63,744 nucleotides of DNA from Patescibacteria group bacterium. GTDB lineage: Bacteria; Patescibacteriota; Minisyncoccia; Phycocordibacterales; UBA2100. Of this stretch, positions 28,090 through 44,505 are shown piece by piece. A model generated the notes under the pieces. The model was not told the origin of the DNA. It ran no database searches and saw nothing but the letters and a program-made list of their open reading frames with translations. The stretch covers positions 1-63,744 of the forward strand of contig JBBTSX010000001.1 of NCBI GenBank assembly GCA_038064535.1. Direction: 5' to 3'. The first letter of the stretch is position 1; each line of letters starts with the position of its first letter. Both the position numbers and the translations under genes were made by a program.

Positions 28090-28176
28090 AGTTTAATTAT
28101 ATCGCTGTTCCGTATTTAAGGAACCGTGCATCAGGGTGGCATGCGTCCGCATACCTCCGATACTAAAAACTTCGGG

Positions 28177-28261
28177 CGGAGGCGGTGAGATTCGAACTCA
28201 CGATACCTTGCGGTATGCCGCCTTTCCAAGGCGGTGGAATAAACCACTATCCGACGCCTCC
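28177..28261 (-). tRNA. tRNA-Ser (GGA)
   Basis: Reverse complement GGAGGCG...anticodon stem-loop CCGCC TTGGAAA GGCGG, long variable arm CATACCGCAAGGTATC, T-arm GTGAGTTCGAATCTCAC, CGCCTCC-G. Confidence 0.9.
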
Positions 28262-28308: not shown

Positions 28309-28338
28309 CCCAATATAGCGATATATCGCTATATTGGG
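28309..28338. repeat. perfect 30-bp palindrome CCCAATATAGCGATA|TATCGCTATATTGGG (family E copy 1)
   Basis: Ends 3 nt before ATG 28342; same core as 28736..28761. Confidence 0.92.
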
Positions 28339-28341
28339 TAG

Positions 28342-28743
28342 ATGGCACATATATCAAAGTTCAGGATGAAACCGGCATTATCGATACGCATCAAGAAAAA
28401 TTTGATGTCTGCTTCTACGCGTAACAGAGGTGTTATGTTGGAATGTTTACTCACGCCGACCGAAACAACAATGCTCGCGAAGCGCCTCGCCATGATTGTT
28501 ATGCTCGAGCGCGGTGATTCGAGCTACCACATCAGCAGGTCACTTCGCGTAAGCGATTCTTCGGTGCAACGATTCAGACGAATGCTTGATGCGGGATTAT
28601 TCAAGCCGGTGGTGAGAGAGCTTCGAAAGAAAAACCGTTCTCTCTTGGATGTGCTAGAGCTCATCCTGTCCGCGGGACTCCCCTCTATCGGCGGTCCGCG
28701 CTCGCAACGACGGCTTCAGAAAATGAGAGATGGGGCAATATAG
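28342..28743 (+). CDS. TrpR/YerC-YecD-like helix-turn-helix protein
   Basis: LLTPTETTMLAKRLAMIVMLERGDSSYHISRSLRVSDSSVQRFRRML resembles the Trp-repressor-like YerC/YecD family. Confidence 0.7.
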   Translation: MAHISKFRMKPALSIRIKKNLMSASTRNRGVMLECLLTPTETTMLAKRLAMIVMLERGDSSYHISRSLRVSDSSVQRFRRMLDAGLFKPVVRELRKKNRSLLDVLELILSAGLPSIGGPRSQRRLQKMRDGAI

Positions 28744-28761
28744 CGATATATCGCTATATTG
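28736..28761. repeat. perfect 26-bp palindrome CAATATAGCGATA|TATCGCTATATTG (family E copy 2)
   Basis: Overlaps the last codons and the TAG stop of CDS 28342..28743. Confidence 0.92.
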
Positions 28762-29420: not shown

Positions 29421-30314
29421 CTATACCTCCATCCCCTGCAATGCGGCAATTCTTTCTTCAACAGGCGGATGTGTGGAGAAAAGCTTTGATACCCAAGCGC
29501 CCGCCGGATGCGCGCCGAACGGGTTGGAGATAAAGAGATGCGCGGTCGTCGTCGAGGCGCGCGCCATCGGTGCACGGTACGAACTTATTTTCTGTAGAGC
29601 GGACGCCAACCCTTCGGGATAACGGGTGAGGAGCGCGCCCGAGGCGTCGGCGAGAAATTCGCGCTTGCGGGAAACGGCGAGCTGGATGAGTTGTGCCGCA
29701 AGCGGTGCCAAGATTATCGAAGCGACGAACGCAACAAGAATGAGCGGATTGTTATTGCCTTTGCGGTCGCCCCCGCCGAAGTGACTCATGTGTATCGCAA
29801 TGTTAGCGAGCACCGAAATAATGCCGACAAGCACGACCACGACCGTCATCACGAGAATGTCGCGGTTGCCGACGTGCGCGAGCTCGTGTGCAATGACGCC
29901 CTCAAGCTCGCTTCTGTCCATCATGGCGAGCAACCCGGTCGTCACGGCGATGACCGCATGCTCTTTGTCGCGCCCCGTCGCAAACGCGTTGGGCTGGGGG
30001 TCTTCTATTATGTAGACACGCGGTTTCGGCAGTCCCGCCGTGATGGCGAGGTTTTCAACGATGCGATGCAGTTCAATATATTGTGTCTCATCGGCTGGCT
30101 TTGCACCCACACTCGCGATAGCCACCTTGTCGGAAAACCAGTACGCACCGATGTTCATCGCAAAAGAAAACACGACGGCGACATACAGGATTGCCGGGTT
30201 GCCGTAGTACTGCGAGAAAACGAAACCTATCGCAACGATGAGCACGAGAAAAACGGTCATCAGGACCCACGTGCGAAAAACATTCTTGCTTTGTTGAGTG
30301 TATAAGGTAGCCAT
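29421..30314 (-). CDS. htpX: zinc metalloprotease HtpX (M48 family)
   Basis: HELAHVGNRD HExxH motif, 4 TM, C-terminal STHPPVEERI. Confidence 0.92.
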   Translation of the reverse strand: MATLYTQQSKNVFRTWVLMTVFLVLIVAIGFVFSQYYGNPAILYVAVVFSFAMNIGAYWFSDKVAIASVGAKPADETQYIELHRIVENLAITAGLPKPRVYIIEDPQPNAFATGRDKEHAVIAVTTGLLAMMDRSELEGVIAHELAHVGNRDILVMTVVVVLVGIISVLANIAIHMSHFGGGDRKGNNNPLILVAFVASIILAPLAAQLIQLAVSRKREFLADASGALLTRYPEGLASALQKISSYRAPMARASTTTAHLFISNPFGAHPAGAWVSKLFSTHPPVEERIAALQGMEV

Positions 30315-30332: not shown

Positions 30333-30368
30333 AATCGTTCAAATCGTTCAAATCGTTCAAATCGTTCA
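30333..30368. repeat. tandem 9-mer AATCGTTCA x4
   Basis: Four exact head-to-tail copies between the htpX start and the upstream gene stop (the stop lies in the last unit). Confidence 0.9.
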
Positions 30369-30743
30369 AGACGAAGAACTCATCGATTTTCCGAGTGCTA
30401 CGAGCTTAAAGTACTCTTGTTCCAGAAGTTTTTCCAGTGGTGCGGTGTCAGCCACCTTCACGAAATTTTCCTGCAAAGCAACTTTGATGCAAGCGACACA
30501 CTCAAGTGTCGAAGACTTTGAGCGATGGACGTACACCGCAAATCCTTTCTTCGTCGGTTGCCCCGAATCCTCTGCAACGTTCAATACGATTGATGTTGCG
30601 GCTCTTCGCAACTGATCTGTCAGTGCGAATGTCTCGGTCTTGGGAAACAATCGAGTAACACGATATGTTTCGCGCACCACCTGCATCCCAATGTGCCAAA
30701 CGTCTAGTTCTTCGAAACGATACCTAACAAATTGTCCTGCCAT
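30366..30743 (-). CDS. four-helix-bundle protein (23S rRNA intervening-sequence protein family)
   Basis: FEELDVWHIGMQVVRETYRVTRLFPKTETFALTDQLRRAATSIVLNVAEDSG; TATAAT (30750..30755)-N6-ATG. Confidence 0.85.
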   Translation of the reverse strand: MAGQFVRYRFEELDVWHIGMQVVRETYRVTRLFPKTETFALTDQLRRAATSIVLNVAEDSGQPTKKGFAVYVHRSKSSTLECVACIKVALQENFVKVADTAPLEKLLEQEYFKLVALGKSMSSSS

Positions 30744-30775: not shown

Positions 30776-31336
30776 TTAGAACGTGACCTTGACGGCGTCT
30801 CGCGCCGCTTGGTCACCCTCCCCGAGTTGGAAGAAATCGCTCGATTTGAATCCGAATGCGCCGCCGATAAGATTGCTCGGGAATGACGCAAGCTTGGTAT
30901 TGAGTTCCATCACGACGCCGTTGTAGAAACGGCGCGCGGCCTGAATTTTGTTTTCGGTGTCCGAGAGCTCGCGCTGGAGCTCGACGAAATTCGCATTCGC
31001 TTTGAGGTCGGGGTAATTCTCAGAAACGGCAAAGAGTGATTTGAGCGCTCCCGTCAGCATATTTTCCGCGTCCGCTTTTTCCTCCGGTGCCGTGGCGTTC
31101 ATGGCGCGCGTGCGCATCTCGGTGACCTTCTGCAATGTCCCCGCTTCGTGCGCGGCGTAGCCTTTGACCGTCTCGACGAGATTGGGGATGAGGTCGTAGC
31201 GACGTTTCATCTGCACTTCGATATCCGACCATCCCTCTTTCACTCTATTGGTAAGCGTGACGAAGCCGTTGTACGCGGCAATAGCCCACACGATAAAGAC
31301 TGCGACAACCCCCAGAGCAATATATGTAAGTGACAT
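30776..31336 (-). CDS. lemA: LemA family protein
   Basis: N-terminal TM then NRVKEGWSDIEVQMKRRYDLIPNLVETVKGYAAHE. Confidence 0.9.
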   Translation of the reverse strand: MSLTYIALGVVAVFIVWAIAAYNGFVTLTNRVKEGWSDIEVQMKRRYDLIPNLVETVKGYAAHEAGTLQKVTEMRTRAMNATAPEEKADAENMLTGALKSLFAVSENYPDLKANANFVELQRELSDTENKIQAARRFYNGVVMELNTKLASFPSNLIGGAFGFKSSDFFQLGEGDQAARDAVKVTF

Positions 31337-31377: not shown

Positions 31378-34300
31378 CTACTTCTTGGGCGGAGTGGCCG
31401 TTACGATTACCCGCCTGCTCGCCTCGTTGTTTACTCTGCCCGAACTGTCGTAGATGGGATTCCGTGCCCCCATCGACGAAATGGTAATGCTTCCGAGAGG
31501 AATGCCGTAAAAGGTGGCGAGCGTTTGTTGAATTGTTTTCGCTCGCTCCAAGCCCAGAACATCGTTGTTGTTATTCCAACGGGAAGAAGGCGTATTGGGG
31601 TCCGTGTTGCCTTGGATGTTGAATGTATATCCTTTGTCGTACAGTTCCTTCATGGCCTTTCCCAGCGGCTCGACATCCGCGCGATTCGTGAGCGCCGCCG
31701 AATCAACTCTGAATTGAATACCAAGACTGACCGGCCGGCCCGCATCGCTGTTTTCTCCACCCCCGAGTCCGATGGCGATATCTTCTGCGGTAGGCCCGAC
31801 ACCTGTGCCGAGAACGGGCGACGCGACCACCGGTAGCGGAAGCTTACTCGCCTCCTCCGCCGCTTTCTTCGCCGCATTCTCGTCGGCAATCCGCTGTGCC
31901 TCGAGCCGTGCATTCAAATCCGTCTGTCTCCGTGCTATCTCGGCGTCTACCGCCTGCCGCTGCGCCTCCCACTGTCTGTCTCTCTCCTCTTGCTCCCGCT
32001 GATTCGCGAGACGTTGCGCCTCCACTCGCGCCGCCACCCGCTCCGCTTCCTCGGCCGCCCGCTGTCTTCTTTCCTGCAATTCATACTCGGGAGAACCGGG
32101 CTCCCCGGGCTTTGGTCCTCCCAAATTGACAGACTGGGGCGGCGCAGGTTGAGCGTCTTTGTTTTCCGTAAAGAGAGATTTCGGTGCTCCCGAATCCCCC
32201 GGAGGAATGATTACAGGAGATGCGAGCTTGGGAGCTTCTTCAACCGCCGGCGGAACAGACGAGCTCGCGGGCGCGGCGGGTGGCGTGATTTCTTGGGTGG
32301 CCGCGGGCGCCGCCGGTGCTTGGGGAGCGGCTGGTTCCTCCGGCACGGGCGGAGTGACGGGCGCCGGCGGAGCAACCGGAGCGGGCGGCTCCTCGACCGG
32401 CGTGGTCTTCGGTAACTGTGCTTCATGCTCCTTTTCGGAAGTGAGGTCGACAGTGAGCGTCTGCTCCTGTGGTGACGGTTTGGATGCGGTGCAAAACTCG
32501 ATACAAAAGACGACTCCGCCGACGACCGTCGTTCCGCCCAAGAGGCCTTTCATCGACATCTTTTCAACTTCCGGCTCAAGAATCTTCGGGCCGGCCGACA
32601 CGTCGAGGGAGCCGGAGCGCGCAACTTTCTCAGTCGCCGGTACAACGGCCGACGGCACCTCCGCGACCGGTGTCTCGACCGGAACTGCCGGCCTGCCCGC
32701 GGCTATGGCCCTCGCTTCCGCAACCGCACTGTCGAGCGCCGCTGTCGGGCCGGACGCGGGAGCGGTCCTTGCAGGCGCGTCAAAAATCGTTCCGGATTTC
32801 GGCATGCCTCCGAGGGTCTCCGGCGCTTTCGTCTCGACAACCGGATTTTTCATGAAATCTCTGATGGCATCCGTCGCTCTGTTGAATTGCGCGGCAGGAC
32901 CCGTCTCTGCGATAGGAGCGGCACCGGCGGATTCAATGTTCGCCGCGCGCGGAAGCCCTCCAGCACTCTCGACTCTTACCCCCGCGCTTGGCCATGGCCC
33001 CACTCCGGAGAGCGGCACCTCCCCTGCTCTTGTCACCCCTCCGAGTGCTCCCGCGCCGCTGTCGGCCATATCAGAACCGGCTGTTCGCGCACCCGCCATC
33101 CCGAACACCCCCGGTTCGCTCCGCACAATACCCGTCTCTCCCAATCCAAGCGCGTAATCAATCCCTTTGTTTGCGGTGGTGGTAATACCTTTAATCGGAC
33201 TAAACAGCGGTGAGACGATGAGGCCGTCAACGGTCGTTTCAACGATCGCACCGGTCGGGTCTATCTTTCTCCCCAACTCGCGGGAAAGGTCACCGGTAAA
33301 TCCGGGAACTACCCCTGTCATTTCCGCGAGATTGCGGGCACTCCCGAATACTGCTCCGCCGACGGAACCGAGAATACCCGGAACCCCCCATCCGATTGTC
33401 TTTCCGAGGTCCCCCACCGAATTGATTTCGCCCGGCATTTGTGATGAGGCGATTGCACCGGCCTCTTTTCCTTTATCTTCAATGACAGAAAAGAACTTTG
33501 ACAGTGTTCCCTCTTCCGTATTCTGGATGATACTTTTTATCTCGGGAGAAGGACCATTGAGCACGTAATCGGCGACTGCATGTTCGAGGTCCGCACGGCG
33601 GGTCGCCGCAATCTGGAGCGCATTTTCAGCGGTCGAAAGGACGGACGTCGGCACGCTCATGTCCGGGTCACTCAGGACCGGAGCACCGCCGATAAGGTTT
33701 TCGTATTTGTATCCGCTCCGCAGTTTATCGGCATAGGTCTGACATTCCGGACAATTCTCGACGGATTCCCCTGCATACGCTTGCAGCAAATTCGCCGCCC
33801 GTTGTGCACAAGGAATATCGCTTGACGGGCATGCGTCCCACACTGCAAACAAATATTGACTTCCCTGCGTATTCAGATTTCTCTCTTCGGGCGGCTTTGC
33901 GCTTTCTTCCGTTGCAAATCTAAATGCAGGCAGTGGTGCCGGCACGTTCGACGGCTGACCTTGCGGATTGCGCTCCTGCGAGTATGCAAGTATTCGCTCA
34001 GACACGGACGGGAGGTCGGTTTTCGCAACGGCAATGACCGGCACAGCGCGCTCGGAATCCGGCTGCGGCCCGTACGCTTCTTGCAGTGCTTTTTTCAGCG
34101 GAGCCGCATCGCCCTCGAAAATCGACCGGAGAGCTGCCGGACCGACTTTTAAAGAAGGGGGTACCGGGTCTCTCGTCGCGCCGACGCTTTCCGCCGCCCC
34201 CCTTCTCACCTCTTCCTCCGTCACCTGTTGTCTCTTTGCGTCGAACAGCCGAGTTTCGATGGATTTTAATTCAGCAGGGGTTCTGTCCATATCCGCGAAC

Positions 34301-35499
34301 GGTGGAGCCGACTGCGGAACAGGTGCCGCCGTACTCGGGCCGGTGGTTTTCGGCGAGTCGTTCGCCGCGACCTGCTGATTCGGTGCGGCCGGAATACTGT
34401 TTTCAGTTGAGGCGTTGGCGTTGGTGACGACTTTTACTTCGGCTCCGGTCACCGGTGTGACCTGTTGCGGCGACTGCTCGAACGAATTCAGAAAGGCAAT
34501 CGGAGCGGGCACGACGAATGGCTGTCGAGTGGTCTGATTCGCCCGTGCATTCGCCGCAATCACGTCCGCATCCGTTTGATTTGTTCCCGCCTGCGCAGAC
34601 GAGTCCCAGATGGAACCGCTGGCGAATGAATTCCGTATTTTCTGAAACCAGCACGACCACGCGCCGTCTGTGCATGTGGAAGTTTGAGTTCCGGTTTGTT
34701 CGGAGGAGCCGAATCCGCTCTGTGAGGAGAATTCGGAACCTTGCGGCGATTGCGGAGCGCCGAGTGCTTCGTTGACTTGAGAGACGGGATTGCCCAAGTC
34801 GGATACGGCGCCGGCCGGCGGGCCGAAGTAATTGTAATTTTGAGAAGCATTTGTCGACAAACCGGTAGCGCCGTTCGAATCACCCGAAGAACCGCCGGAC
34901 TGCCCCGCGGCGTTCAGGCTTTCGAGTTGCCCAGTAGTTGGGTTCACGATGTACTGCCCGTCCAATGGTTTTGCGGCGTTTGCATCAAAGGCTGCGGTGA
35001 TTTGTTGTGCGGTAAGTTGCGACGACACGGATTGCCATGGTGCATTCGCTCCGGTCCCCGCAGTAGAAGGTTGCGCGATAGCGGCGCCCGGGACTGTACC
35101 GGCGGTAGAGAAATATTTCTTGAGATACTCCGACTCTGCGACCGATACCTTCTTACAATTCCCCTGTCTCTTACAGTCAGGATAATTATCAATATACGTC
35201 TCTATGTGACACTTCAGTTTGGCGTAGCAATGACCTTCGAGAAAAGATTTCCCCGCAGTGGTCTCTTCGCATGGTTTGTCCAACATGCACAATTCACCTT
35301 TTGAATTCTTCGCAGTGCCGTTCTTATAAGTGCATTTCCAGTCGACGGGCACGTCCTTGCCGGCATCGCACATGGCGTTCGCCGGATCTTTGGCCGGGTC
35401 CTTTGCTGGAGTTGTTACCTGCGCGTATGAGAGGGAGAAGAACGCGAGACTCAAAAAGACCGACAAGAAAAGAGTAGTCGCTGTGCGACTGCGGTACAT
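31378..35499 (-). CDS. giant secreted protein 1 (1373 aa) with coiled-coil and C-terminal OmpA/MotB-like peptidoglycan-binding domain
   Basis: Signal peptide MYRSRTATTLFLSVFLSLAFFSLSYAQ; Cys-rich N-domain; long low-complexity P/A/G/S regions; OmpA-like tail (31381..31752: IQGNTDPNTPSSRWNNNNDVLGLERAKTIQQTL...ASRRVIV). Confidence 0.85.
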   Translation of the reverse strand: MYRSRTATTLFLSVFLSLAFFSLSYAQVTTPAKDPAKDPANAMCDAGKDVPVDWKCTYKNGTAKNSKGELCMLDKPCEETTAGKSFLEGHCYAKLKCHIETYIDNYPDCKRQGNCKKVSVAESEYLKKYFSTAGTVPGAAIAQPSTAGTGANAPWQSVSSQLTAQQITAAFDANAAKPLDGQYIVNPTTGQLESLNAAGQSGGSSGDSNGATGLSTNASQNYNYFGPPAGAVSDLGNPVSQVNEALGAPQSPQGSEFSSQSGFGSSEQTGTQTSTCTDGAWSCWFQKIRNSFASGSIWDSSAQAGTNQTDADVIAANARANQTTRQPFVVPAPIAFLNSFEQSPQQVTPVTGAEVKVVTNANASTENSIPAAPNQQVAANDSPKTTGPSTAAPVPQSAPPFADMDRTPAELKSIETRLFDAKRQQVTEEEVRRGAAESVGATRDPVPPSLKVGPAALRSIFEGDAAPLKKALQEAYGPQPDSERAVPVIAVAKTDLPSVSERILAYSQERNPQGQPSNVPAPLPAFRFATEESAKPPEERNLNTQGSQYLFAVWDACPSSDIPCAQRAANLLQAYAGESVENCPECQTYADKLRSGYKYENLIGGAPVLSDPDMSVPTSVLSTAENALQIAATRRADLEHAVADYVLNGPSPEIKSIIQNTEEGTLSKFFSVIEDKGKEAGAIASSQMPGEINSVGDLGKTIGWGVPGILGSVGGAVFGSARNLAEMTGVVPGFTGDLSRELGRKIDPTGAIVETTVDGLIVSPLFSPIKGITTTANKGIDYALGLGETGIVRSEPGVFGMAGARTAGSDMADSGAGALGGVTRAGEVPLSGVGPWPSAGVRVESAGGLPRAANIESAGAAPIAETGPAAQFNRATDAIRDFMKNPVVETKAPETLGGMPKSGTIFDAPARTAPASGPTAALDSAVAEARAIAAGRPAVPVETPVAEVPSAVVPATEKVARSGSLDVSAGPKILEPEVEKMSMKGLLGGTTVVGGVVFCIEFCTASKPSPQEQTLTVDLTSEKEHEAQLPKTTPVEEPPAPVAPPAPVTPPVPEEPAAPQAPAAPAATQEITPPAAPASSSVPPAVEEAPKLASPVIIPPGDSGAPKSLFTENKDAQPAPPQSVNLGGPKPGEPGSPEYELQERRQRAAEEAERVAARVEAQRLANQREQEERDRQWEAQRQAVDAEIARRQTDLNARLEAQRIADENAAKKAAEEASKLPLPVVASPVLGTGVGPTAEDIAIGLGGGENSDAGRPVSLGIQFRVDSAALTNRADVEPLGKAMKELYDKGYTFNIQGNTDPNTPSSRWNNNNDVLGLERAKTIQQTLATFYGIPLGSITISSMGARNPIYDSSGRVNNEASRRVIVTATPPKK

Positions 35500-35505
35500 G
35501 ACTCT

Positions 35506-35511
35506 ATTGTA
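35506..35511 (-). promoter_or_regulatory. -10 box TACAAT, 6 nt upstream of the giant-1 ATG (leaderless geometry)
   Basis: Same TACAAT-N6-ATG arrangement at giant 2 (41499..41504); the surrounding intergenic sequence is conserved between the two loci. Confidence 0.55.
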
Positions 35512-35565
35512 CCAGCGCGGCGGCGGTGTGCCGTAAATTACGGCTCATTTCGTGTATATAACGGA

Positions 35566-35609
35566 GATATCCCCAAGGGCTTGCTTTTTTCTTGGTTGTG
35601 TGGTATCAT
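35566..35609 (+). promoter_or_regulatory. conserved promoter module 1: box GATATCCCCAAGGGC, -35 TTGCTT, 17 nt, -10 TATCAT
   Basis: Same box, -35 and spacing at 35963..36006 and 41559..41602. Confidence 0.65.
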
Positions 35610-35659
35610 CCCATCTAGCTTAATTGGAGCTGGCCAATCATGGCCACAGAGAGGACGAC

Positions 35660-35833
35660 ATGAAAAAACTTATGCTCGCTGCCGTGGCTCTGGTTGCGCT
35701 TGCGTCTCCGGCGTTCGCCTTCGCGAACGATGGGACGCCACAGTCCGCTGCCATGACCACGACGACGCCCGCGTCTCCGGCGTCCGCCCCCGTGAACGAC
35801 GGCACGCCCCCAAGTTCCTCTACCAATCGCTAA
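35660..35833 (+). CDS. small secreted peptide 1 (57 aa)
   Basis: MKKLMLAAVALVALASPAFA signal peptide; mature part has two NDGTP repeats and is Thr/Pro/Ser-rich; AGAGAGGA region upstream of the ATG; terminator downstream. Confidence 0.6.
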   Translation: MKKLMLAAVALVALASPAFAFANDGTPQSAAMTTTTPASPASAPVNDGTPPSSSTNR

Positions 35834-35845
35834 GCGATTGCTCTG

Positions 35846-35885
35846 CCGGTCATTTGCCTCGCGCAAATGACCGGACTGCTTTTTG
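35846..35885 (+). terminator. intrinsic terminator
   Basis: CCGGTCATTTGC-ctcgc-GCAAATGACCGG followed by ACTGCTTTTT; stem homologous to the 36362 terminator. Confidence 0.75.
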
Positions 35886-35962
35886 ATGCCGGTCCTTTCG
35901 GGCGGTTGGGGAATAACAACAATACGGCTCAAATTCAAGCTATTTTCATGCTCATATCGTAG

Positions 35963-36006
35963 GATATCCACAGGGGCTTGCTTTTTACACGATTATGTGG
36001 TACGAT
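35963..36006 (+). promoter_or_regulatory. conserved promoter module 2: box GATATCCACAGGGGC, -35 TTGCTT, 17 nt, -10 TACGAT
   Basis: See module 1; downstream 5' UTR contains the identical 21-nt GGAGCTGGCCAATCATGGCCA. Confidence 0.65.
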
Positions 36007-36052
36007 GTCCCCCAGTTGTTAGGAGCTGGCCAATCATGGCCAAGGAGGACAA

Positions 36053-36346
36053 ATGAAACACATCGTTCTCGTTGCTTTGGCCATGATGGGATTCACCGCC
36101 GTGGCCAATGCGCTGAGTCTCGAGAAGTACGAGATAATCTTTCAGCCGCTGGGGCTGGAACGTGCAGTGAAGGTCAACGGCATGGACTGCCTTATGACCA
36201 CGCCGTACGACACGCACGCGCGATGCGGCACTGAACGGGTCAACCTTAAGCGCTGTGAATTTCCGGCGTTCGAGGGTGGAAGCCTTGTTTGTCATCTCGC
36301 CCCCCCGTGGCCGCCCACTGCTCCAACCCACAACATCCGCCGCTAA
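36053..36346 (+). CDS. small secreted Cys-containing protein 2 (97 aa)
   Basis: AAGGAGG-N5-ATG; signal peptide MKHIVLVALAMMGFTAVANA; 4 Cys in the mature part. Confidence 0.6.
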   Translation: MKHIVLVALAMMGFTAVANALSLEKYEIIFQPLGLERAVKVNGMDCLMTTPYDTHARCGTERVNLKRCEFPAFEGGSLVCHLAPPWPPTAPTHNIRR

Positions 36347-36361
36347 CCGGCGCATGTGTTA

Positions 36362-36399
36362 CCGGTCGTTTGCTCACGCAAACGATCGGTATTGCTTTT
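36362..36399 (+). terminator. intrinsic terminator
   Basis: CCGGTCGTTTGC-tcac-GCAAACGATCGG followed by TATTGCTTTT. Confidence 0.75.
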
Positions 36400-36452
36400 C
36401 ATATATGCAACAAACGGTGTTCCCTCTTTCAGACAGTGCTAGTATGTATCAT

Positions 36453-36743
36453 ATGGTAGAGAAATGGAGCAGACGCGATGTGTTGAAACGTGCGGTCGTT
36501 GCAGGAGCCGCACTCACTTTGGGGGCACGCGAAGGTGTCGCAAAGCAAAGCCCGTCCAACGACATGCCTGCCGTAACAGAGTCATCTGTCAAAGACCGGG
36601 AGGAAATTCAGGAATTGGATAGAATAAACCGTGAGATGCAGGATGCGATTAAAAAAGGAGATTTGGAGAAAATACGGAGACTGACCGATGACCTCGAGAA
36701 TCACCTCAAGCGACTAATGGAACGCGAGGGTAAACCCCGTTAG
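36453..36743 (+). CDS. small Tat-signal protein with coiled-coil C-terminus (96 aa)
   Basis: TAGTAT (36440..36445)-N7-ATG 36453; MVEKWSRRDVLKRAVVAGAALTLGA twin-arginine signal; last two codons and the stop come from repeat A7. Confidence 0.6.
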   Translation: MVEKWSRRDVLKRAVVAGAALTLGAREGVAKQSPSNDMPAVTESSVKDREEIQELDRINREMQDAIKKGDLEKIRRLTDDLENHLKRLMEREGKPR

Positions 36744-36833
36744 AAGCTCACGCGGGGTATTGAACCCCACGTTCGCATAATTGATTTGACATTCCTCCGC
36801 GGCAAGCCGCGGGGCATTCTGCTTCTAACGGGG
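36735..36833. repeat. family A foldback element copy A7
   Basis: CCCCGTTAGAAGC (36735..36747) / GCTTCTAACGGGG (36821..36833); direct repeat GGTAAA at 36729..36734 and 36832..36837. Confidence 0.85.
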
Positions 36834-36848
36834 TAAATGAGTTTGCGC

Positions 36849-39800
36849 TCACCGCCGTATCCATATGCCTCGAAGTCTGGCCAAGCCCGCCTCGAGCTTT
36901 GGGCTGCTGCGCAACCTTTCCATTGCAACGTTCTCAATATACGCTCGACCAACCCATCCCCTAGTAGGGTCATTGAGCGCCTCATTGATACCGGTCTGAA
37001 CTTGATTGCGGGCGGTATTGATGCGTGCTATCGAAGTGTTGACTTGGTCAATCGAACTCTGAATTTTATCGGCGAGTTTCTTGTCGCCCGCATCCAATGC
37101 CGCCTGTTTCGCTTCTTGAAGCACAGGTCTTGAATCTTTCAGCGATTCCAGCACATCGTTCCCTGCGCTCTTAAAACTGCTGAGGGTTGAGTCTGGATTC
37201 TTCAGAACTTTCTCCAGTTGGTCGGTGTTGTCTCTCACGTCTTGAAGTGCCGCGTGAGCATTGCCGACGGCCTCTTGTTTTTTTGCTTCCGTTACTTCAG
37301 GTCGGGGCTGAGGAAGCGGGATTGCCTCTCCCTCCCCGATTGCGGTTGCGGCGGTAGTTTCTTTTGCCGGTGCGCTATCGGCGGCAACCTGCGACGACGC
37401 GCCTTCACCGGCAGTTTCACTGGCAAACGACCGCGCCGCTTGATCGTTGGCGACATTTTCTGTGATTTGCTTGTCTGACAAGAGCAGGTCTTTCGGCTCA
37501 AACTGATTCAGATACGAGAGGTCCGCCACAGACAAATCCGGCTCTTTGGCTTCCGGCGCTTCTACATTCGCTACTTCATCGCCGAATGTGCGGGCGGCCT
37601 GATCATTTACAATATCTGTAGCCACTTGTTCATGCGACACGAGAAGGTCTTTTGGTGCCGCATCGTCGAGATATGCAAGATTCTTATCCGGAATTATTGT
37701 CTCCGTCGGAATCGCAGGATTCAGAGAATCGGGCGGAGCCTGATTGTAGGCTCCTACAGCGAGGTCCTGCGGAGAAGTCGCCTCTTTTACCTGCGCCTCA
37801 ATATCTTTGCCGCTTTCTGCGGTGAAGATTTTCGGATCCCATAGCGGCACCGGAATGCGTTCTTCTATTGGAATTACTTTTTCCGTTTCTTTTTCCGGTG
37901 CAAAAGTAGACGCGGCCTGTTCAATCGGGTTGCCGTTGCCGTCTATATCCTGCGGGCGCGGCGTCGGTAGCGGCACTTCCGGAGCCGACGGCGTTATGAG
38001 CGCCGCGTCTCTCCCCGTGCCGCCCAACTCCTTTTCGAGCCCGCCGGACGCGACGTAGTTATTGCTTCCGCTCCTCGTGTAATCCGTGACCGGAACATTT
38101 TCTACCGTCCTATCACCCACCTGCACGTTCACCTTGTCACCGATTTTGAGACCCTGCGGATTGTCGCGCGGCACAGCGATGCCCTGCATGTCTCCGGCAA
38201 GCGGAGTGCCTCCCGCCGCGGAGCTCCTGCTGTCTGCTCCGCACACACCTCCCCCTCCTTGGCAGCCGAGTGCGACCAGCTTCTGCCCGCCGGAATCATA
38301 CGGATTACCTCTGTTTTCTTCGATGGAATTCCACGGTTTGGCGTCTGGATTCGCGAGGCGTTCGAGCGGCGGCTGTTGTGCGGCTTCTTGCACGGATGCG
38401 GCTGTCGGCGCACCTTCCGGTCGTGCGGGCGGGAGCGGAACTGTTTCTTGAATGGGTTGCAAGCGATTGTCCGAACCGGCATTGGCGGCAATGATGTCCG
38501 CTGTCTTGCCCCCGCCGGATTCCGCCGCCGGAATACTCAACGGTCGTTCCGGTGGAAGCCGCACATCAGTTACGGTTATCTCCGGCCGCGGCGGAGGGAG
38601 CCGCACCTCATCAACGGGTGTATCTGTACCCGATGGCGGCACGTCACTGATTTTCGTTTCTCCGGGTATTGATACCGTCGGTGCAGGTGCCACATCGGTC
38701 CGAAGCGCATCGTTGGACGGGTATTCAAGTGCAAGATTGCCGACAATATTCGGCTCGGGCCAGTCTTTGGAGTCAATGGTATTGAATGCCTGTTGAGCAG
38801 CAATACTGGCATTTTCCTGTGCGCTCATCGCCGTGTTTCCTTCCCAACCGTTTGCGAAAGCGTTGAACGCCGCATTGTCGGTCATAATCTGGTTTTGCCC
38901 AGAAGATACGGCGGCACCACCCTCCCACCCTCCGGCAAATGAGTTGACAGCCGCGTTCTCGGCAAGCGTTTGATTTTGTCCCGTGGACAACGCGGCACCG
39001 TTTTCCCAACCGCCGCCAAATGCGTTGATTGCCTGATTCTGGAAGCCCTGTTCCGCAACTGCAAGATTCCCACTACTTTCACCGTACATATCGTACGGGC
39101 TGTTGGTGCCGGTCCACCCGCCGTTCATCTTCGTACTGGTGTCGACCACATCGCCGCCGTAATAACTCGCATTTTGGAGCGGCTGCTGGTCGATGTACGA
39201 TCCCGCTGGTCGCGCCGAATAGGGCAAATCATTACTGCCCCCGACATTGTCGACCGGTCTCGTCTGTGTAATCTCCGCATTTCCCGAATCCGGCAAACCG
39301 GAGTATTGCGTATACGTCTGATAACGCTCATTCAGGAACGGCTGGTTGCTCGCAAGTCTCATCGCTTCGGCGTCGGAGTTCGCGAAGCCGGTTGCAATGT
39401 CAAGCTTGTCAGGTCTTCCGACGAAATCACTCCCGGTGTCATGGATGTAGACCGGAACGTTCTCGAGCGTGTACTGTTTGCCATCAATTGCACTCCTGTA
39501 CGTGATACTAGGAATTTCGTATGTTTGGCCCATTCGTTTGGTAAGGTCGGACGCACCGGTCACATATTCTGATTCCCCGCGCCTATAATTATCGAGTGTC
39601 CGAACGAGCCTTTCGCCATCGAGCCCGGGTCGCGCGCTTTCACGACCGCCCTGCATCGGACACGCGCTTGCGCTCGGACACGGCAGATAGGCAGTCACAT
39701 CAAATTTCGTCTCCCCTATTGCCTTTACCGATATGACTCCTTCCCGCTCTTTTGAAGCATCCGGCTTCATCTCTCCTTGAATATCTCTCGGGGGTTCTTT

Positions 39801-41492
39801 CGACAATGTCTCCTCAGGTCCTTTAGGTAATTCCTTGGTCGATATCTTGCTCCAATCAATCTCCGTCGAAGCGTCTGATTTATTCGGATTATCCAATGCC
39901 GCGTTTTCCGCAAAACCGGTGGCGGGCCGGGCCGGCAGTGAACCGGGGCTGACCGACTCTGCAATGAGCGGCGGCGTAGCCGTTATGGCGTTGCCGTTTG
40001 CGTCGACTGGTGGCGCGGATGCATCTTCTGCCAGTCGCTCCGGCGTCGGCCCGAATGCAACATAGGGAGACTCCGCGTCGATGTTCACCGCGCATGCAAT
40101 GTTTGTGCACGCGGATGATCCGTTTACCCACCAGTCATTTGCCCCACTTACGACGGTACCGAAGTTTGATTGCCCCTCCCCCTTGCTCACCCAATCGCCG
40201 GAAAGATCAGCCGCAATCGGGATTACACTCTTGACGGTCGCACCTGTCTCGAACACAACCGGTTGTCCCGTCGCGTTCACGATATCTTGCGCCGTGATGC
40301 TGTTTGGATTCTCGGGAGCAGTCTGCAACGAGGCGGGCTCCTGACCCACCTGCCCGGGAGCAAAGTTCGCGGCTATTTGATTCGCCGCGTTGTACGGATA
40401 CAGAAGCGGAGTGTTTGCAAGCGACCCGTTCGCCGGAGCCGTCCAGCTGGTGGATATGGGTGGGGTGAATACGCCAGCGTTTGCTATTTCGTTGCCCAGC
40501 AGTGGGGCCAGAGCGGTCGGTATTGTAGGGCTAGTGGGCATCTGAATCGCCCATGGGTCTGAAGCGCTCGGTGCAAACGGAATGGGGGCTACTGTGTTGC
40601 CGGCGGTTGGAAACGGTGTGACGGGGCCGGAAGACGGATTAAGTGCCAGACCTTGTGTGGAGAGCGGATTAAACCCGGTCGTCGGGGCAACCGATGGTGA
40701 ATATGGCGTACCGGGATAATACCCATTGCCGGCATTGAGTGACTCGAGTCCCTGCGGAGCACCGCTCGACTGCGGGAACATTGACGAAGTATTACTCATG
40801 CCGAGATAATCAGAATTGAATGACGACACTGGGTTCAGTGTCTGTTCCAAAATGGACTGCCCCGGTTGGAATCCGGAATACCCATACCCTCCGAGTGAGT
40901 TTTCCGGGGTAATTCCGTACTGCTGGCTGAGCATATTATTAATATCCCCACCAGATGTATCCGGCGCATTTGCTGTGCCGGGAATGGTCTGAAATTCTTC
41001 GGTGCCGTTCTTAAACGCATTATCTATCTGCTCGGGCGTCTTCTGCTCCACGGGTTTCCACGGTGCATTCTCGCCCGTTTGATTGGGAGTACCTCCCGCA
41101 CCTGTCGTATCACCGGCCGGTATTTCCGGCTTTTTGACGTCTCCCGCATATTTACAATCATCTTGCGCGTGGCACTTGCCCGGCACCGTGCCCGACACGT
41201 CCGGTACAGTGGTCGGACATGACTTCCCGTATAGGTTGGTGATTGTCCTGAACGTCTTGAGCGTATTGTCCCATTCCTGCCATTGCTTCCCTTTCGTCGC
41301 GTCGTACTTATTGTTCCTGTCCGGAGCGGGACAGTCTTTATTAGCATTATTGACCGATGGTCCCGATGAAAACCCGGAACCACTGGACCCTCCCGGCATT
41401 GATAAAACCGTCTGCGCATGCGTCAGTGAAACAAATGCGAGACTCAAAAAGGCCGATAGGACAAAAGTAGTCGCTATGCGACTCCGGTACAT
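36849..41492 (-). CDS. giant secreted protein 2 (1547 aa) with 3D-like and DPBB-like putative peptidoglycan-lytic domains
   Basis: Signal peptide MYRSRIATTFVLSAFLSLAFVSLTHAQ; N-domain homologous to giant 1; 3D-like region (39378..39701: TAYLPCPSASACP...VPVYIHDTGSDFVGRPDKLDIAT); DPBB-like region (38013..38270); internal tandem repeats. Confidence 0.85.
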   Translation of the reverse strand: MYRSRIATTFVLSAFLSLAFVSLTHAQTVLSMPGGSSGSGFSSGPSVNNANKDCPAPDRNNKYDATKGKQWQEWDNTLKTFRTITNLYGKSCPTTVPDVSGTVPGKCHAQDDCKYAGDVKKPEIPAGDTTGAGGTPNQTGENAPWKPVEQKTPEQIDNAFKNGTEEFQTIPGTANAPDTSGGDINNMLSQQYGITPENSLGGYGYSGFQPGQSILEQTLNPVSSFNSDYLGMSNTSSMFPQSSGAPQGLESLNAGNGYYPGTPYSPSVAPTTGFNPLSTQGLALNPSSGPVTPFPTAGNTVAPIPFAPSASDPWAIQMPTSPTIPTALAPLLGNEIANAGVFTPPISTSWTAPANGSLANTPLLYPYNAANQIAANFAPGQVGQEPASLQTAPENPNSITAQDIVNATGQPVVFETGATVKSVIPIAADLSGDWVSKGEGQSNFGTVVSGANDWWVNGSSACTNIACAVNIDAESPYVAFGPTPERLAEDASAPPVDANGNAITATPPLIAESVSPGSLPARPATGFAENAALDNPNKSDASTEIDWSKISTKELPKGPEETLSKEPPRDIQGEMKPDASKEREGVISVKAIGETKFDVTAYLPCPSASACPMQGGRESARPGLDGERLVRTLDNYRRGESEYVTGASDLTKRMGQTYEIPSITYRSAIDGKQYTLENVPVYIHDTGSDFVGRPDKLDIATGFANSDAEAMRLASNQPFLNERYQTYTQYSGLPDSGNAEITQTRPVDNVGGSNDLPYSARPAGSYIDQQPLQNASYYGGDVVDTSTKMNGGWTGTNSPYDMYGESSGNLAVAEQGFQNQAINAFGGGWENGAALSTGQNQTLAENAAVNSFAGGWEGGAAVSSGQNQIMTDNAAFNAFANGWEGNTAMSAQENASIAAQQAFNTIDSKDWPEPNIVGNLALEYPSNDALRTDVAPAPTVSIPGETKISDVPPSGTDTPVDEVRLPPPRPEITVTDVRLPPERPLSIPAAESGGGKTADIIAANAGSDNRLQPIQETVPLPPARPEGAPTAASVQEAAQQPPLERLANPDAKPWNSIEENRGNPYDSGGQKLVALGCQGGGGVCGADSRSSAAGGTPLAGDMQGIAVPRDNPQGLKIGDKVNVQVGDRTVENVPVTDYTRSGSNNYVASGGLEKELGGTGRDAALITPSAPEVPLPTPRPQDIDGNGNPIEQAASTFAPEKETEKVIPIEERIPVPLWDPKIFTAESGKDIEAQVKEATSPQDLAVGAYNQAPPDSLNPAIPTETIIPDKNLAYLDDAAPKDLLVSHEQVATDIVNDQAARTFGDEVANVEAPEAKEPDLSVADLSYLNQFEPKDLLLSDKQITENVANDQAARSFASETAGEGASSQVAADSAPAKETTAATAIGEGEAIPLPQPRPEVTEAKKQEAVGNAHAALQDVRDNTDQLEKVLKNPDSTLSSFKSAGNDVLESLKDSRPVLQEAKQAALDAGDKKLADKIQSSIDQVNTSIARINTARNQVQTGINEALNDPTRGWVGRAYIENVAMERLRSSPKLEAGLARLRGIWIRR

Positions 41493-41498
41493 TGTCCC

Positions 41499-41504
41499 AT
41501 TGTA
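41499..41504 (-). promoter_or_regulatory. -10 box TACAAT, 6 nt upstream of the giant-2 ATG (leaderless geometry)
   Basis: Mirrors 35506..35511. Confidence 0.55.
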
Positions 41505-41558
41505 GCAGTACGGCGGCCGTGTAGTGCAAATTGCGGCCCATTTAGTGTATATAACTGG

Positions 41559-41602
41559 GATATCCCCACGGGCTTGCTTTTCCGACAGTTATGTGTTAGT
41601 AT
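41559..41602 (+). promoter_or_regulatory. conserved promoter module 3: box GATATCCCCACGGGC, -35 TTGCTT, 17 nt, -10 TAGTAT
   Basis: Third copy of the module. Confidence 0.65.
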
Positions 41603-41645
41603 TAAACGAGTGACCCTGGGCCATTTCGGCCTCAAGGAGGGAGTC

Positions 41646-41924
41646 ATGAAAAAGACCGTTCTTGCAGTCGTGCTCGCTGTATTGGCGCTGGGGTTTACCG
41701 TCCCGGCAAATGCTCAGTCGGCTCAGGAGCTGACGGCGTTCCAACACATTCGCTCGCTCGATGTGCAAACGTTCGTAGCGCGTCAGGCGCAGGCCGAAGC
41801 GTGCACATGGACCCCGACGCAGGCGAAATACTTCGAGTGCCTGCAGTCGTACAACCGCAGCATCGCGCAGTTGCAGCAAGAAGCTGCAATCGCAATCGCC
41901 AAGGACATCGCCGGCAAGAAGTAG
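41646..41924 (+). CDS. small secreted protein 3 (92 aa)
   Basis: AAGGAGGG-N5-ATG; signal peptide MKKTVLAVVLAVLALGFTVPANA; 2 Cys; helical mature part. Confidence 0.6.
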   Translation: MKKTVLAVVLAVLALGFTVPANAQSAQELTAFQHIRSLDVQTFVARQAQAEACTWTPTQAKYFECLQSYNRSIAQLQQEAAIAIAKDIAGKK

Positions 41925-41935
41925 TCGGAGCATCA

Positions 41936-41975
41936 CTGGTCACTCGCACCTCGCGGGTGACCAGCTCTCTTTTTT
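41936..41975 (+). terminator. intrinsic terminator
   Basis: CTGGTCAC-tcgcacctcgcgg-GTGACCAG followed by CTCTCTTTTTT. Confidence 0.7.
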
Positions 41976-42164: not shown

Positions 42165-43820
42165 CTACATGTCCTCCCCCATGCCTCCGCCCATACCGCC
42201 TGCGGACGACTTCTTCTCTTCGGGAATGTCGGCAACCGCCGCTTCGGTCGTGAGGAGCACGGCGGCGGCTGAAGCTGAGTTCTCTACAGCAGAACGTGTA
42301 ACTTTGACGGGGTCAATGATTCCCGCCTCATACATGTCGACGATTTGTTCCGTCATCGCGTCCCAACCCATAGCGTTTGACTTTTTAACTTGTTCGAGAA
42401 TAAGCGCCGCGTCCTCGCGTCCGGTGTTGTAAACAATTTGTTTCAACGGTGCTTGGAGTGCTTTCATTACAATGAGGTATCCGCTTTGAAACTCAGCGTT
42501 CTGAGTCGATTTTTGTTTTTCGTTCATCGCGTGGAATTTCTGATGTAGTTTTTCTGCTACTTTCACAAGCGCCGCGCCGCCCCCCGGCACGATGCCTTCG
42601 GCTATCGCGGCCTTGGTCGCATTGACCGCGTCCTCGATTTTGTCTTTGAGGTATTTCATCTCCGTTTCCGTCGCCGCACCCACGCGGATGACAGCGACGC
42701 CGCCCGAGAGTTTCGCAATGCGTTCGTCGAGTTTCTCTTTGTCGAATTTGGAATCGGTCTGTTCGATTTGTGCACGCAGTTGGCCCACACGCTTTTCGAT
42801 GTCGGCCTTCTTGCCTTTGCCACCGACGATGGTCGTCGAGTCTTTTGTCGCGATGATGCGATTGGCACGACCGAGCATATTCAATTCCGCTTTTTCGAGC
42901 GAGAGACCGAGGTCTTCGGTGATGACCTGCGCGCCCACCGTGATGGCGATGTCAGAGAGCATTTCTTTCTTGCGGTCGCCGTATCCCGGCGCTTTGACCG
43001 CAAGCACGTTGAACACACCTTTCAATTTATTGACGACGAATGTCGCGAGAGCTTCCCCGTCCACATCGTCGGCGATGATGACAAGGTCCCGCTTGCCGCT
43101 CTGCGCAAGCTTTTCGAGCAGTGGGAGAATGTCTTTGATAACGGAAATCTTTTTGTCGGTAATGAGAATGGATGCGTCCTTTGCTTCGGCTTCCATGCGC
43201 TCCGCATTCGTAATCATGTACGCCGAGACATAGCCCTTGTCGAACTCCATTCCTTCCACATAGTCGGTCTCGATGCCGATAGATTGTGATTCTTCTACCG
43301 TAACGACGCCGTCCTTGCCGACTTTCTCGACGATGTCCGCAATCGCTTTGCCGAGCTCCGCGCTTTCGGCGGCTATGGTCGCAACTTGGCGCACGTCTTC
43401 TTTGCCTTTGACCGGCTTCGCCATCGTTTTGAGCGCAGCGACCGCATCAGCGGCCGCGGCTTCGATACCGTGGCGCACCATCATGGAATTAGCGCCCATC
43501 GCGGTGCGCTTGAGTCCCTCGTGAATGATTGCCTGCGTGAGAACGACTGCGGTAGTCGTGCCGTCACCGGCCTTGTCGTTGGTCTTGGTCGCGACTTCTT
43601 TCACGATGCTCGCGCCCATGTTCTCGAATTTGTCGGCAAGCGTGATTTCCTTGGCGATAGAAACGCCGTCGTTGGTAATGGTGGGACCGCCCCACGATTT
43701 ATCGAGGGCGACATTGCGTCCTTTGGGACCGAGCGTGACGCGCACCGCGCCTGCGACGATATCGACGCCGCGCTTGAGCGCCGCGCGGACCTCTGTGTCA
43801 AAAATTACCTGTTTTGCCAT
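42165..43820 (-). CDS. groL: chaperonin GroEL
   Basis: [20 protein letters not shown]...AGDGTTTA...; C-terminal GGMGGGMG tail. Confidence 0.97.
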
Positions 43821-43847: not shown

Positions 43848-44165
43848 TTAGAAGGTGCCGAGGATGTTGTTCTCCGTGATGACGTAGTAATCTTCCTCGT
43901 CGATGGTGACTTCGTCGTAGCCGTACTTGGAGAACATCACCTTGTCGCCCACCTTGTAACGCATCGGGAGCACGTCGCCCTTGTCGTTGCGCTTTCCCTC
44001 GCCGACAGCAACGATAGTGCCCCGCTCGGGCTTTTCCTTTTGTGCGGTGTCGGGAATGATAATGCCAGAGGCGGTTTTCTGGTCCTCCGCAACTTCGGGC
44101 TTCACGAGCACGCGGTCGCCCGCAGGCTTGAACTTAATCTTGCTGGTTTTTGTGTCTTTCTTCAT
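43848..44165 (-). CDS. groS: co-chaperonin GroES
   Basis: ATG 44165: [23 protein letters not shown]...[23 protein letters not shown]. Confidence 0.93.
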   Translation of the reverse strand: [105 protein letters not shown]

Positions 44166-44271
44166 ACGGGGTGAAACTAACGCTAATAAGTCGTGGGGGC
44201 AATATACACGAGGTAAAGCCATGGGGCAACACCTTTGACTTCCCCGCGGCCATTTGTTACATTAGCTGGGC

Positions 44272-44505
44272 ATGGCTCTTCTCCACGGCGTTCTGCCGTA
44301 CGTACAGATAATTCTGTCCGCACTCCTCATCGTGTGTATTCTTCTACAGCGCACGGGGGCAAGCTTGGGCGGAGCATTCGGTGCCGACAACTTCTCGTCG
44401 GGCTTCCACACACGCCGCGGATTGGAAAAGACACTCTTCTATACGACCATTGTGCTCGGTATTTTGTTTGCCTTGTCAGCACTTATTAACCTCCTAACCA
44501 GCTAG
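44272..44505 (+). CDS. secG: preprotein translocase subunit SecG
   Basis: 77 aa, two TM, LLQRTGASLGGAFG signature. Confidence 0.8.
   Translation: MALLHGVLPYVQIILSALLIVCILLQRTGASLGGAFGADNFSSGFHTRRGLEKTLFYTTIVLGILFALSALINLLTS

Follow-up and report, generated by a model that had tools for sequence, protein, structure and literature searches.

Very large, signal-peptide-bearing and poorly annotated proteins have been reported in candidate phyla radiation (CPR), ultra-small, host-dependent or predatory lineages, with local hypervariability, or domains associated with cell-wall compounds, noted in some of these giants (PMC6851277; bioRxiv 10.1101/2023.11.21.568195). The present work concerns two giant genes, G1 and G2, and four small open reading frames (ORFs) with export signals, s1 to s4, in a stretch of 63,744 nucleotides (contig JBBTSX010000001.1; the whole stretch is hereafter the window) from the genome of a groundwater Candidatus Kaiserbacteria, a CPR/Patescibacteria member; an initial reading of the DNA made from its letters alone, the sequence-only reading, had rightly supposed a CPR organism. 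Unlike the reported CPR and predator giants, the present ones are smaller (1.4-2.8 thousand amino acids), occur in few Kaiserbacteria-like lineages and have a constant chromosomal position, upstream of lemA-htpX; and whereas adjacent type II or pilus secretion genes have been described for the giants of Omnitrophota, none was seen beside these.

Proteins of the OmpA/MotB/Pal type (PF00691) resemble G1 in its last ~100 amino acids (aa), which score above the Pfam cutoff and keep the motif TD...L..RA, as well as in the helical or Pro-rich spacer ahead of the domain, a feature of many wall-tethered proteins. G1 differs from them in adding what would be a secreted, mostly disordered N-terminal part of 1260 aa, in having no porin barrel, lipobox or MotB-type N-terminal membrane helix, and in belonging to a CPR host with no outer-membrane indication in the DNA examined. 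Gram-positive MSCRAMM/LPXTG adhesins present the same order of parts, namely a signal peptide, a variable head, a low-complexity stalk, a Pro-rich wall-spanning tract and a C-terminal anchor, and they share with the giants both strain-level mosaicism and changes in repeat number; on inspection of the sequences, however, the giants have no LPXTG or YSIRK motif and no terminal hydrophobic segment; profile comparison with Pfam and the PDB shows no recognisable Ig-like or adhesin fold, and the anchoring of G1 would be non-covalent, via its OmpA-like domain. As to the RlpA/DPBB_1 and 3D lytic transglycosylase-like barrels (Pfam clan DPBB), an orthologue of G2 (P0007) matches DPBB_1, whereas neither of the two G2 segments in question reaches the threshold of profile, PDB or hhalign comparison. 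The giants are previously undescribed, and a look at the literature turned up no paper on Kaiserbacteria surface proteins.

Here it is proposed, as an account which taken as a whole is considered probable, that the region between groESL-secG and lemA-htpX is a lineage-specific hot spot encoding two paralogous giants, and that a promoter cassette of ~300 bp, carrying the beginnings of two signal peptides, was copied from the G2/s4 junction onto G1 in the window lineage only.

Results

The intergenic region that the sequence-only reading had described as conserved between the two giants is real, yet it needs correction on two points: the DNA homology extends over ~300 bp, from the signal-peptide codons of the giant into the first ~60 nt of s1 or s4, that is, into the signal-peptide codons of the small ORF, and the box that it contains, GATATCCCCANGGGCTTGCTTTT, is present in three copies and not two (35566, 35963 and 41559; expected 0.00). 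Read as a direct repeat of 187 nt, the two regions (35419-35605 versus 41412-41598) are 76% identical without gaps; a gapped alignment over ~280 nt gives a mean column identity of 84%. The affinity of G1 changes along its 5' end. Its upstream 110 nt are 74.8% identical to those of the window G2 and 50.4% to those of its own orthologue in the sister-species locus L008 (about 75-76% when compared with G2-type upstream DNA from either the window or L008); its 81 nt of signal-peptide codons are 79.5% identical to G2 and 70.2% to the L008 orthologue; the next 400 nt show 51.5% against G2 and 74.8% against the orthologue. The breakpoint in identity falls near the signal-peptide cleavage site. The sister-species G1 is devoid of the box cassette, and s1 and s2, both present in the related strain from Hainich well H51, are absent from L008; the breakpoint and this absence together suggest that G1 acquired the ~300-bp cassette at its 5' end by transplantation, in the window lineage.

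On the plus strand, the box is best read as the -35 side of a putative sigma-70 promoter serving the small ORFs. The same architecture is found in eight instances, TTGCTT being followed after 17 nt by TA(T/C/G)NAT, each time 40-90 nt upstream of an ORF and in seven of the eight with TG at -15/-14 (contig L030 has CTGG there); ahead of s1, the 17-nt spacer includes the TG and leads to TATCAT at 35604-35609. Outside the window, the architecture recurs in L008, in the loci L009 and L022, in the H51-strain contig L027 and in two AT-rich CPR contigs (L014 and L030, 40% GC), while 12 of 19 matches to the box pattern in metagenomes had no -10/TG context and were treated as chance. The promoter module of s4 is conserved in L008, L011, L015 and L023, and the hairpin in the 5'-untranslated region (UTR) of s1 is repeated ahead of s2 (36027-36042) and conserved in the H51 strain. 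Within ~86 kb of the window genome the box is found at the giant locus only. In the AT-rich contigs it is nearly identical over 23 nt and precedes, at L014 4515-4537(-), the gene of a small membrane protein with tuf, S10 and L3 behind it and, at L030 2434-2456(+), a DksA-like gene with ftsH behind it. Since it stands there ahead of unrelated genes, the box would define a type of promoter and not a giant-specific signal, and its interpretation as a locus-specific regulon signal alone was rejected; that it is retained in lineages whose base composition differs so greatly suggests a strong-promoter or factor-binding element common to them. The palindrome GCCGTAAATTACGGC, also considered as a conserved operator, was dropped, for its pairing is not kept in L008. 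The contigs of the H51 strain break in or beside box copies (L007 1-136, L027 1-40), which indicates that the repeated cassette is long enough to fragment short-read assemblies.

The minus-strand side is built on another plan. An extended -10 of the form TGnTACAAT stands 6-7 nt before the ATG of both window giants, of the L007 giant, of G1 and G2 in L008, of the L009 giant and of the upstream giant in L006; the variants are TATAAT at the same place in P0003 and TAGAAT 11 nt before the ATG in P0004. The giants have no Shine-Dalgarno sequence and, judging from this arrangement, their mRNAs are probably leaderless, which would explain why gene callers truncated the starts of both (P0001 and P0005). 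A -10 hexamer, often TGn-extended, at 6-8 nt before an ATG devoid of a Shine-Dalgarno sequence is shared by many window genes, including lemA, the IVP gene and s3, so this genome seems to make frequent use of leaderless mRNAs; clear GGAGG sites, in contrast, stand ahead of the box-driven small ORFs. The hairpin in the signal-peptide codons of the giants (35476-35490(-) and 41469-41483(-)) is found at the same codons in L007, L008, L009 and L006. Over eight giants 91.7% of cells preserve its pairing, and two of the pairs show compensatory double changes (A-U to G-C and C-G to U-A), evidence that is suggestive only, the sample being small and the structure derived from the same sequences. A search of the region with Rfam returned no known RNA family. 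The hairpin could act as an attenuator, a pause site or an mRNA-stability element.

The small signal-peptide ORFs do lie head-to-head with the giants, s1 with G1 and s4 with G2, and the two further small ORFs reported between the giants (s2 and s3) exist as well; less secure is the Tat (twin-arginine translocation) signal claimed for one of them. The N-terminus of s3 is twin-arginine-like, with SRRDVLK (SRRGLLK in L008) and AVVAGAALTLGA preceding a helical charged body, but the Pfam TAT_signal profile gives 14.6 bits against a cutoff of 22.7, and neither tatA nor tatC was seen among the window ORFs scanned. Beyond their signal peptides s1-s4 are mutually non-homologous, and each appears to be a separate monocistronic unit with its own terminator. 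A case apart is s1, in which the signal-peptide segment is duplicated in frame as a 69-nt tandem repeat (35677-35739 and 35746-35808) whose second copy has diverged and now encodes a T/P/S-rich peptide; the H51 strain shows this structure too (L027 87-257), and its orthologue has 60% aa identity over aligned codons. In view of this internal duplication, s1 looks like a young gene. The H51 orthologues of s2 and s3 are 97% and 78% identical in aa, and the L008 orthologues of s3 and s4 72% and 57%.

A giant, or two, is found upstream of lemA in every locus compared. An M48 peptidase gene also follows in L006, L008, L009 and L011, the contigs of L007 and L022 reaching lemA only on the giant's downstream side, and groESL with secG occupies the opposite flank in the window, L008 and L011 (of groEL, the L009 contig includes just the 3' end). 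In the sister species (L008 and L011, the latter being MFLL01000011 from Ca. Kaiserbacteria RIFCSPHIGHO2_02_FULL_55_25, with partial copies in L015 and L023), the order is groEL, s4/box/G2 head-to-head, s3/G1 head-to-head and lemA. In L006, a G2-like giant is followed 3 nt later by a G1-like one, and L009 has a single giant of 2113 aa composed of a G2-like N-terminus, a DPBB region and a G1-like central domain.

This comparison bears on the central claim of the sequence-only reading, a duplicated functional module or apparatus, and on the explanation that would go with it: a dedicated two-component system where the giant needs the divergent small exported protein as a chaperone, inhibitor, immunity factor or docking partner, the two being co-regulated by their shared intergenic region. 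The persistence of the s4/box/G2 pair in L008, L011, L015 and L023, the presence of s3 next to G1 or G2 in three genomes, the retention beside the giants of L009 and L022 of a small box-driven ORF for a secreted, helical 2-Cys protein, and the confinement of the box to the giant locus in the window genome would all be in keeping with such a partnership. The small ORF of L009 and L022, however, adjoins lemA together with its box and diverges from that gene, not from a giant; no small ORF intervenes between the giants of L006; s1 and s2 are lineage-specific; and a partnership is further opposed by the mutual non-homology of the small ORFs, by the terminator that each possesses and by the unrelated genes that the same box drives in AT-rich CPR contigs. 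The head-to-head arrangement of giant and small ORF across the box recurs for G2/s4 in L008, L011 and L023, but not in L006, L009 and L022. With the sister G1 having no cassette in addition, the duplicated module is not borne out, and an obligate pairing of giant and small protein is regarded as unlikely.

The giants themselves, two minus-strand ORFs of 1373 and 1547 aa, exist with the N-termini that had been quoted for them. BLASTP aligns them over the first ~250 aa only (30% identity, 29% gaps, E 1e-12), in agreement with the Cys-containing N-terminal region and the differing C-terminal parts that had been noticed. In an eight-sequence alignment (G1, G2 and six homologues), three Cys are invariant, and the signal peptide is conserved together with the motifs G..AP and Q..AF; the predicted signal peptide is of the Sec type (MYRSR / TATTLFLSVFLSLAFFSL / SYA-Q; hydropathy 1.8-2.0) and is kept in all homologues. 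All 16 Cys of G1 and 8 of the 10 of G2 lie in close pairs, as expected for disulfide-bonded extracytoplasmic domains, and P/A/G/S/T/Q are abundant in both proteins. Searched with a profile, 1.84 billion representatives yield nine proteins of the family at E<=1e-3 and no relatives of the N-domain beyond it; the corresponding PDB profile search was empty. When the whole giants and seven fragments were compared with Pfam, NCBIfam and PHROGs, OmpA was the sole match.

A third paralogue, P0004 (1478 aa), lies 7.9-12.3 kb to the left of window position 1 (L002/L003 10001-14437); its N-domain is the same, but its C-terminal part is unrelated and contains internal repeats. Encoded next to it are a 1321-aa Big_2/beta-helix/PG_binding_1 protein, a CAP-domain protein and an Amidase_3, and these surroundings appear to form a wider cluster of wall-active exported proteins. 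A relative of L006 encodes P0008 (1543 aa), in which the N-terminal half of the L006 G2-like giant is joined to a G1-like central domain; natural recombination between the tandem giants, or else a chimeric assembly, would account for it.

G1 consists of a signal peptide (aa 1-27), a Cys-paired N-domain (to ~aa 330), a low-complexity tract, a conserved helical central domain (~aa 545-800), a Gly-rich hydrophobic CxxxC segment (aa 985-1005; Kyte-Doolittle hydropathy 1.72), a Pro-rich tract, a charged E/R/Q helix (~aa 1138-1215) and the OmpA-like domain (aa 1263-1360). The claim that G1 ends in such an anchor is upheld by Pfam, PF00691 scoring 32.3 bits on the whole protein and 34.6 bits on the fragment, above the gathering cutoff of 27.2, and the domain matches MotY and OprF in the PDB (E 0.0025-0.01). 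Its NTD...LGLERA motif is invariant across four orthologues, as are D1300, L1317, R1319 and A1320 within GNTDPNTPSSRWNNNNDVLGLERA; TD...N..L..RA is the conserved Asp/Arg peptidoglycan-contact motif of OmpA_C-like domains. Binding of peptidoglycan by the C-terminus of G1, as predicted from profile and motif, is plausible. G1 orthologues are 79% (P0002), 72% (L008) and 41% (P0003) identical in aa. The helical central domain finds relatives only within the family, in the profile search of 1.84 billion representatives as in that of the PDB, and an AlphaFold2 model of aa 28-830 from a shallow alignment is too poor for fold matching (mean predicted local distance difference test score, pLDDT, of 32).

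G2 comprises a signal peptide (aa 1-27), the N-domain, a low-complexity tract, a variable cassette (~aa 514-719), three 27-aa repeats, a PLPxxRP-rich tract, a conserved beta-rich segment (~aa 1060-1165) and a helical C-terminal domain. Its orthologue P0006 is 71% identical over aa 1-513 and 57% over aa 720-1547, the middle being replaced; the place of aa 514-719 is taken in both P0006 and P0007 by a different, DPBB-like cassette, 53% identical between the two across the DPBB region. The DPBB_1 matches are weak (whole P0007 E 3e-5, P0007 fragment 2.8e-7, P0006 fragment 0.069) and, as whole proteins, both orthologues fall below the curated cutoff. The two lytic-looking barrels that had been claimed for G2 itself were not recovered. 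For its segments aa 560-760 and 1040-1190, neither Pfam nor NCBIfam (E<=5) nor PHROGs (E<=1) returns a match; against the PDB these segments give chance-level matches only, to unrelated proteins (E 0.04-1.3), and none by profile search; hhalign against the DPBB region of the orthologues returns probabilities of <=1%, a weak negative since these are two-sequence alignments; and when phage genomes were searched by tblastn with the cassettes of G2 and P0006, only chance matches came up. An AlphaFold2 model of aa 560-1190, also from a shallow alignment, shows strands in both segments at a mean pLDDT of 31, unusable for a fold search. The YIHDTGSDFVGRPDKLDIA string in the variable cassette of G2 (DTG...D) presumably resembles the Asp motif of 3D domains and serves as a lead only; profile, PDB and hhalign comparison did not identify G2 as a DPBB_1 (PF03330) or 3D (PF06725) protein.

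The modular make-up of the family could also be that of polymorphic toxins or contact-dependent effectors, with an N-terminal delivery module, variable C-terminal effectors and the small ORFs as immunity proteins. An N-domain common to G1, G2 and P0004, the last with its unrelated C-terminal part, is what such a family would have, and cassette replacement, chimeras such as P0008 and the DPBB-like, wall-lytic cassette of the orthologues point the same way; yet no toxin, pre-toxin or immunity family was matched in Pfam, NCBIfam or PHROGs, and the most variable parts are internal, the C-terminus of G1 being its best conserved part and a wall anchor. Nor does any same-strand immunity gene follow downstream, lemA coming after G1 and the convergent s3 after G2, and no dedicated secretion system is found nearby. 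A toxin family is hence judged distinctly improbable.

As to the integrity of the genes, G1 has an identical copy in an independent Logan assembly, and full-length relatives devoid of frameshifts come from several other sampling projects and separate assemblies: P0002 (Hainich well H51), L008, L011, L006 (which holds P0003 and a neighbour of 2.8 thousand aa) and L009 (which holds P0007). In codon alignments the ratio of nonsynonymous to synonymous substitution rates (dN/dS) is 0.10-0.46 in every 100-aa window of G1 and 0.10-0.49 in the 100-aa windows of G2 with estimable dS, compared with 0.05-0.10 for the neighbouring GroEL, LemA and HtpX; for the small ORFs it is 0.22 (s1), 0.18 (s2), 0.24-0.36 (s3) and 0.54 (s4). 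TRF finds almost no tandem DNA repeats within the giant genes. Between the H41 and H51 strains, G1 has a dS of 0.04-0.08 over aa 656-755 and 856-1061 and is just 37-44% identical over aa 304-555, and repeat numbers in the giants vary between species. The close strains are recombination mosaics, as befits a modular, recombining surface-protein family, and the giants are under purifying selection while evolving by cassette swaps and recombination. That the giants are repeat-collapsed assemblies, or decaying pseudogenes open by chance in GC-rich low-complexity sequence, as might be suspected from their long low-complexity tracts, from the breaks of L007 and L027 at box repeats and from disagreement among gene callers on starts, is very unlikely, to the point of being nearly negligible, given the identical Logan copy, the intact orthologues, dN/dS below 0.5 in every window with estimable dS, the scarcity of tandem repeats and the conservation of the paired Cys.

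The features of the locus and of its flanks are collected in Table 1. Among the neighbours no secretion apparatus was found, LepA, MurJ, RNR, RNase J and the like being housekeeping genes.

Table 1. Features of the giant locus and its surroundings, in window coordinates.
Feature	Position	Strand	Basis and remarks
htpX-type M48 peptidase	29421..30314	-	Pfam; downstream neighbour
23S-rRNA-IVP four-helix protein	30366..30743	-	Pfam; downstream neighbour
lemA	30776..31336	-	Pfam; downstream neighbour of giants
G1, 1373 aa	31378..35499	-	ORF; identical copy in independent Logan assembly; orthologues
OmpA-like peptidoglycan-binding domain of G1, aa 1263-1360	31420..31713	-	Pfam PF00691
G1 signal-peptide codons, G2 type	35419..35499	-	6-bp hairpin at codons 4-8, then U-rich tract
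G1 extended -10 TGGTACAAT	35506..35514	-	6 nt before ATG
s1 promoter module	35515..35609	+	AAATT/palindrome element; box 35566-35588; -35 TTGCTT 35581-35586
5'-UTR hairpin TGGCCA-ATCA-TGGCCA	35631..35646	+	Just before s1 Shine-Dalgarno; repeat
s1, 57 aa	35660..35833	+	Signal peptide and T/P/S-rich 35-aa peptide; terminator 35846-35874
s2 box copy and promoter	35963..36006	+	Second box; not beside a giant
s2, 97 aa	36053..36346	+	Signal peptide and 4-Cys mature part; terminator 36360-36391
s3, 96 aa	36437..36743, ATG 36453	+	TGCTAGTAT 7 nt before ATG (leaderless type); terminator 36795-36814
G2, 1547 aa	36849..41492	-	ORF; orthologue P0006
G2 signal-peptide codons and extended -10 TGCTACAAT (41499-41507)	41412..41507	-	Same hairpin as G1
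s4 promoter module	41508..41645	+	Box 41559-41581, -35 TTGCTT, -10 TAGTAT, small GGCC hairpin, Shine-Dalgarno
s4, 92 aa	41646..41924	+	Signal peptide and helical 2-Cys mature part; terminator 41936-41964
groEL	42165..43820	-	Upstream neighbour
groES	43848..44222	-	Upstream neighbour
secG	44272..44505	+	Upstream neighbour
Leaderless-type starts, examples	88, 2187, 28089(-), 28342, 30743(-), 31336(-), 36453, 52508(-), 60103(-)		-10 spacing

Some further observations concern the flanks. An ORF of 240 aa at 27367..28089(-), beside tRNA-Ser, combines an HNH repeat with T5orf172/MUG113 (GIY-YIG-like) homing-endonuclease domains and may be a mobile-element remnant. Adjoining the same tRNA-Ser (28175-28261), a gene for a 133-aa Trp-repressor-like helix-turn-helix protein (ORF 28342..28743) is bracketed by two copies of the perfect 26-nt palindrome CAATATAGCGATATATCGCTATATTG (28311-28336 and 28736-28761), which may represent an operator/terminator pair or else mark the two limits of a small element. 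The string TTTACTAAAACCTAYAACCTA is present upstream of both groEL (43820, -) and an unrelated ORF at 55612(+), and three copies of TGAACGATT precede htpX (30314, -); all three genes are devoid of an upstream Shine-Dalgarno sequence, and these strings could be non-Shine-Dalgarno translation signals or regulatory sites.

Discussion

The locus does not reveal a new kind of machine; what stands out most in it is the transplanted two-signal-peptide cassette, together with the gene birth that goes with it, and the conserved 5' hairpin. In the reading favoured here, G1 and G2 would be Sec-exported, largely disordered giant envelope proteins composed of exchangeable modules and serving most likely as surface fibres or in activity on the wall. 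G1 may be pictured as a fibrillar surface protein with a C-terminus non-covalently fixed in the wall and with the variable two-thirds on its N-terminal side projecting outward, where they would contact host, partner or environment. G2 and its orthologues may be secreted and wall-associated, the variable cassette being in some lineages a putative lytic-transglycosylase-like barrel. Each junction would be read in two ways, from an extended -10 into a leaderless giant mRNA with an early-codon hairpin and U-rich tract on the minus strand, and from a box-type sigma-70 promoter through a short 5'-UTR hairpin and a Shine-Dalgarno sequence into a signal-peptide ORF on the plus strand. This cassette would have been copied from G2/s4 to the 5' end of G1, a further box copy would drive s2, and s1 would have been born from the copied promoter and signal peptide and an internal duplication. 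The small proteins may be pictured as strongly expressed and exported, sharing regulation with the giants but not being their obligate partners.

Several points weigh against this reading. Outside the OmpA domain no known family or structure is matched in either giant, and the adhesin and wall-remodelling roles are read from architecture; the 3D-like motif of G2 is missing from its L006 homologue. The hydrophobic segment of G1 at aa 985-1005 could be a membrane helix, which would put the OmpA-like domain on the wrong side of the membrane. Leaderless initiation is deduced from the spacing between promoter and ATG. The direction of the transfer, finally, is derived from two outgroups, one being L008 and its near-identical copies, where the region upstream of G1 is different, and the other L006, where G1 directly follows G2.

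A more far-reaching idea, to which little credence is given at present, is that the ~300-bp cassette is a portable unit of gene birth and co-regulation, its hairpin/U-tract and AAATT/palindrome element forming a shared switch. If true, a copied cassette would provide flanking DNA with both a strong promoter and an export signal, s1 being a de novo exported peptide, and the switch, as an attenuator or factor-binding site, would couple the expression of giant and small secreted protein during host contact.

Surface building and host contact in CPR/Patescibacteria are largely unknown, and most of the large exported proteins of these bacteria are unannotated. The practical value of the locus lies in annotation, both giants being mis-started by gene callers, and in the choice of targets for expression and localisation studies; the leaderless TGnTACAAT and the box-type strong promoter offer usable promoter definitions for an uncultured lineage. 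The case is a clear one of a promoter-plus-signal-peptide cassette moved between paralogues and seeding new small secreted genes, in so far as the transfer proposed here is correct. G1 would provide a plausible example of non-covalent wall anchoring of the OmpA type, the DNA examined giving no indication of an outer membrane in this organism, and the region upstream of lemA-htpX a fixed and easily found site where the Kaiserbacteria lineage may keep its fast-evolving modular surface giants.

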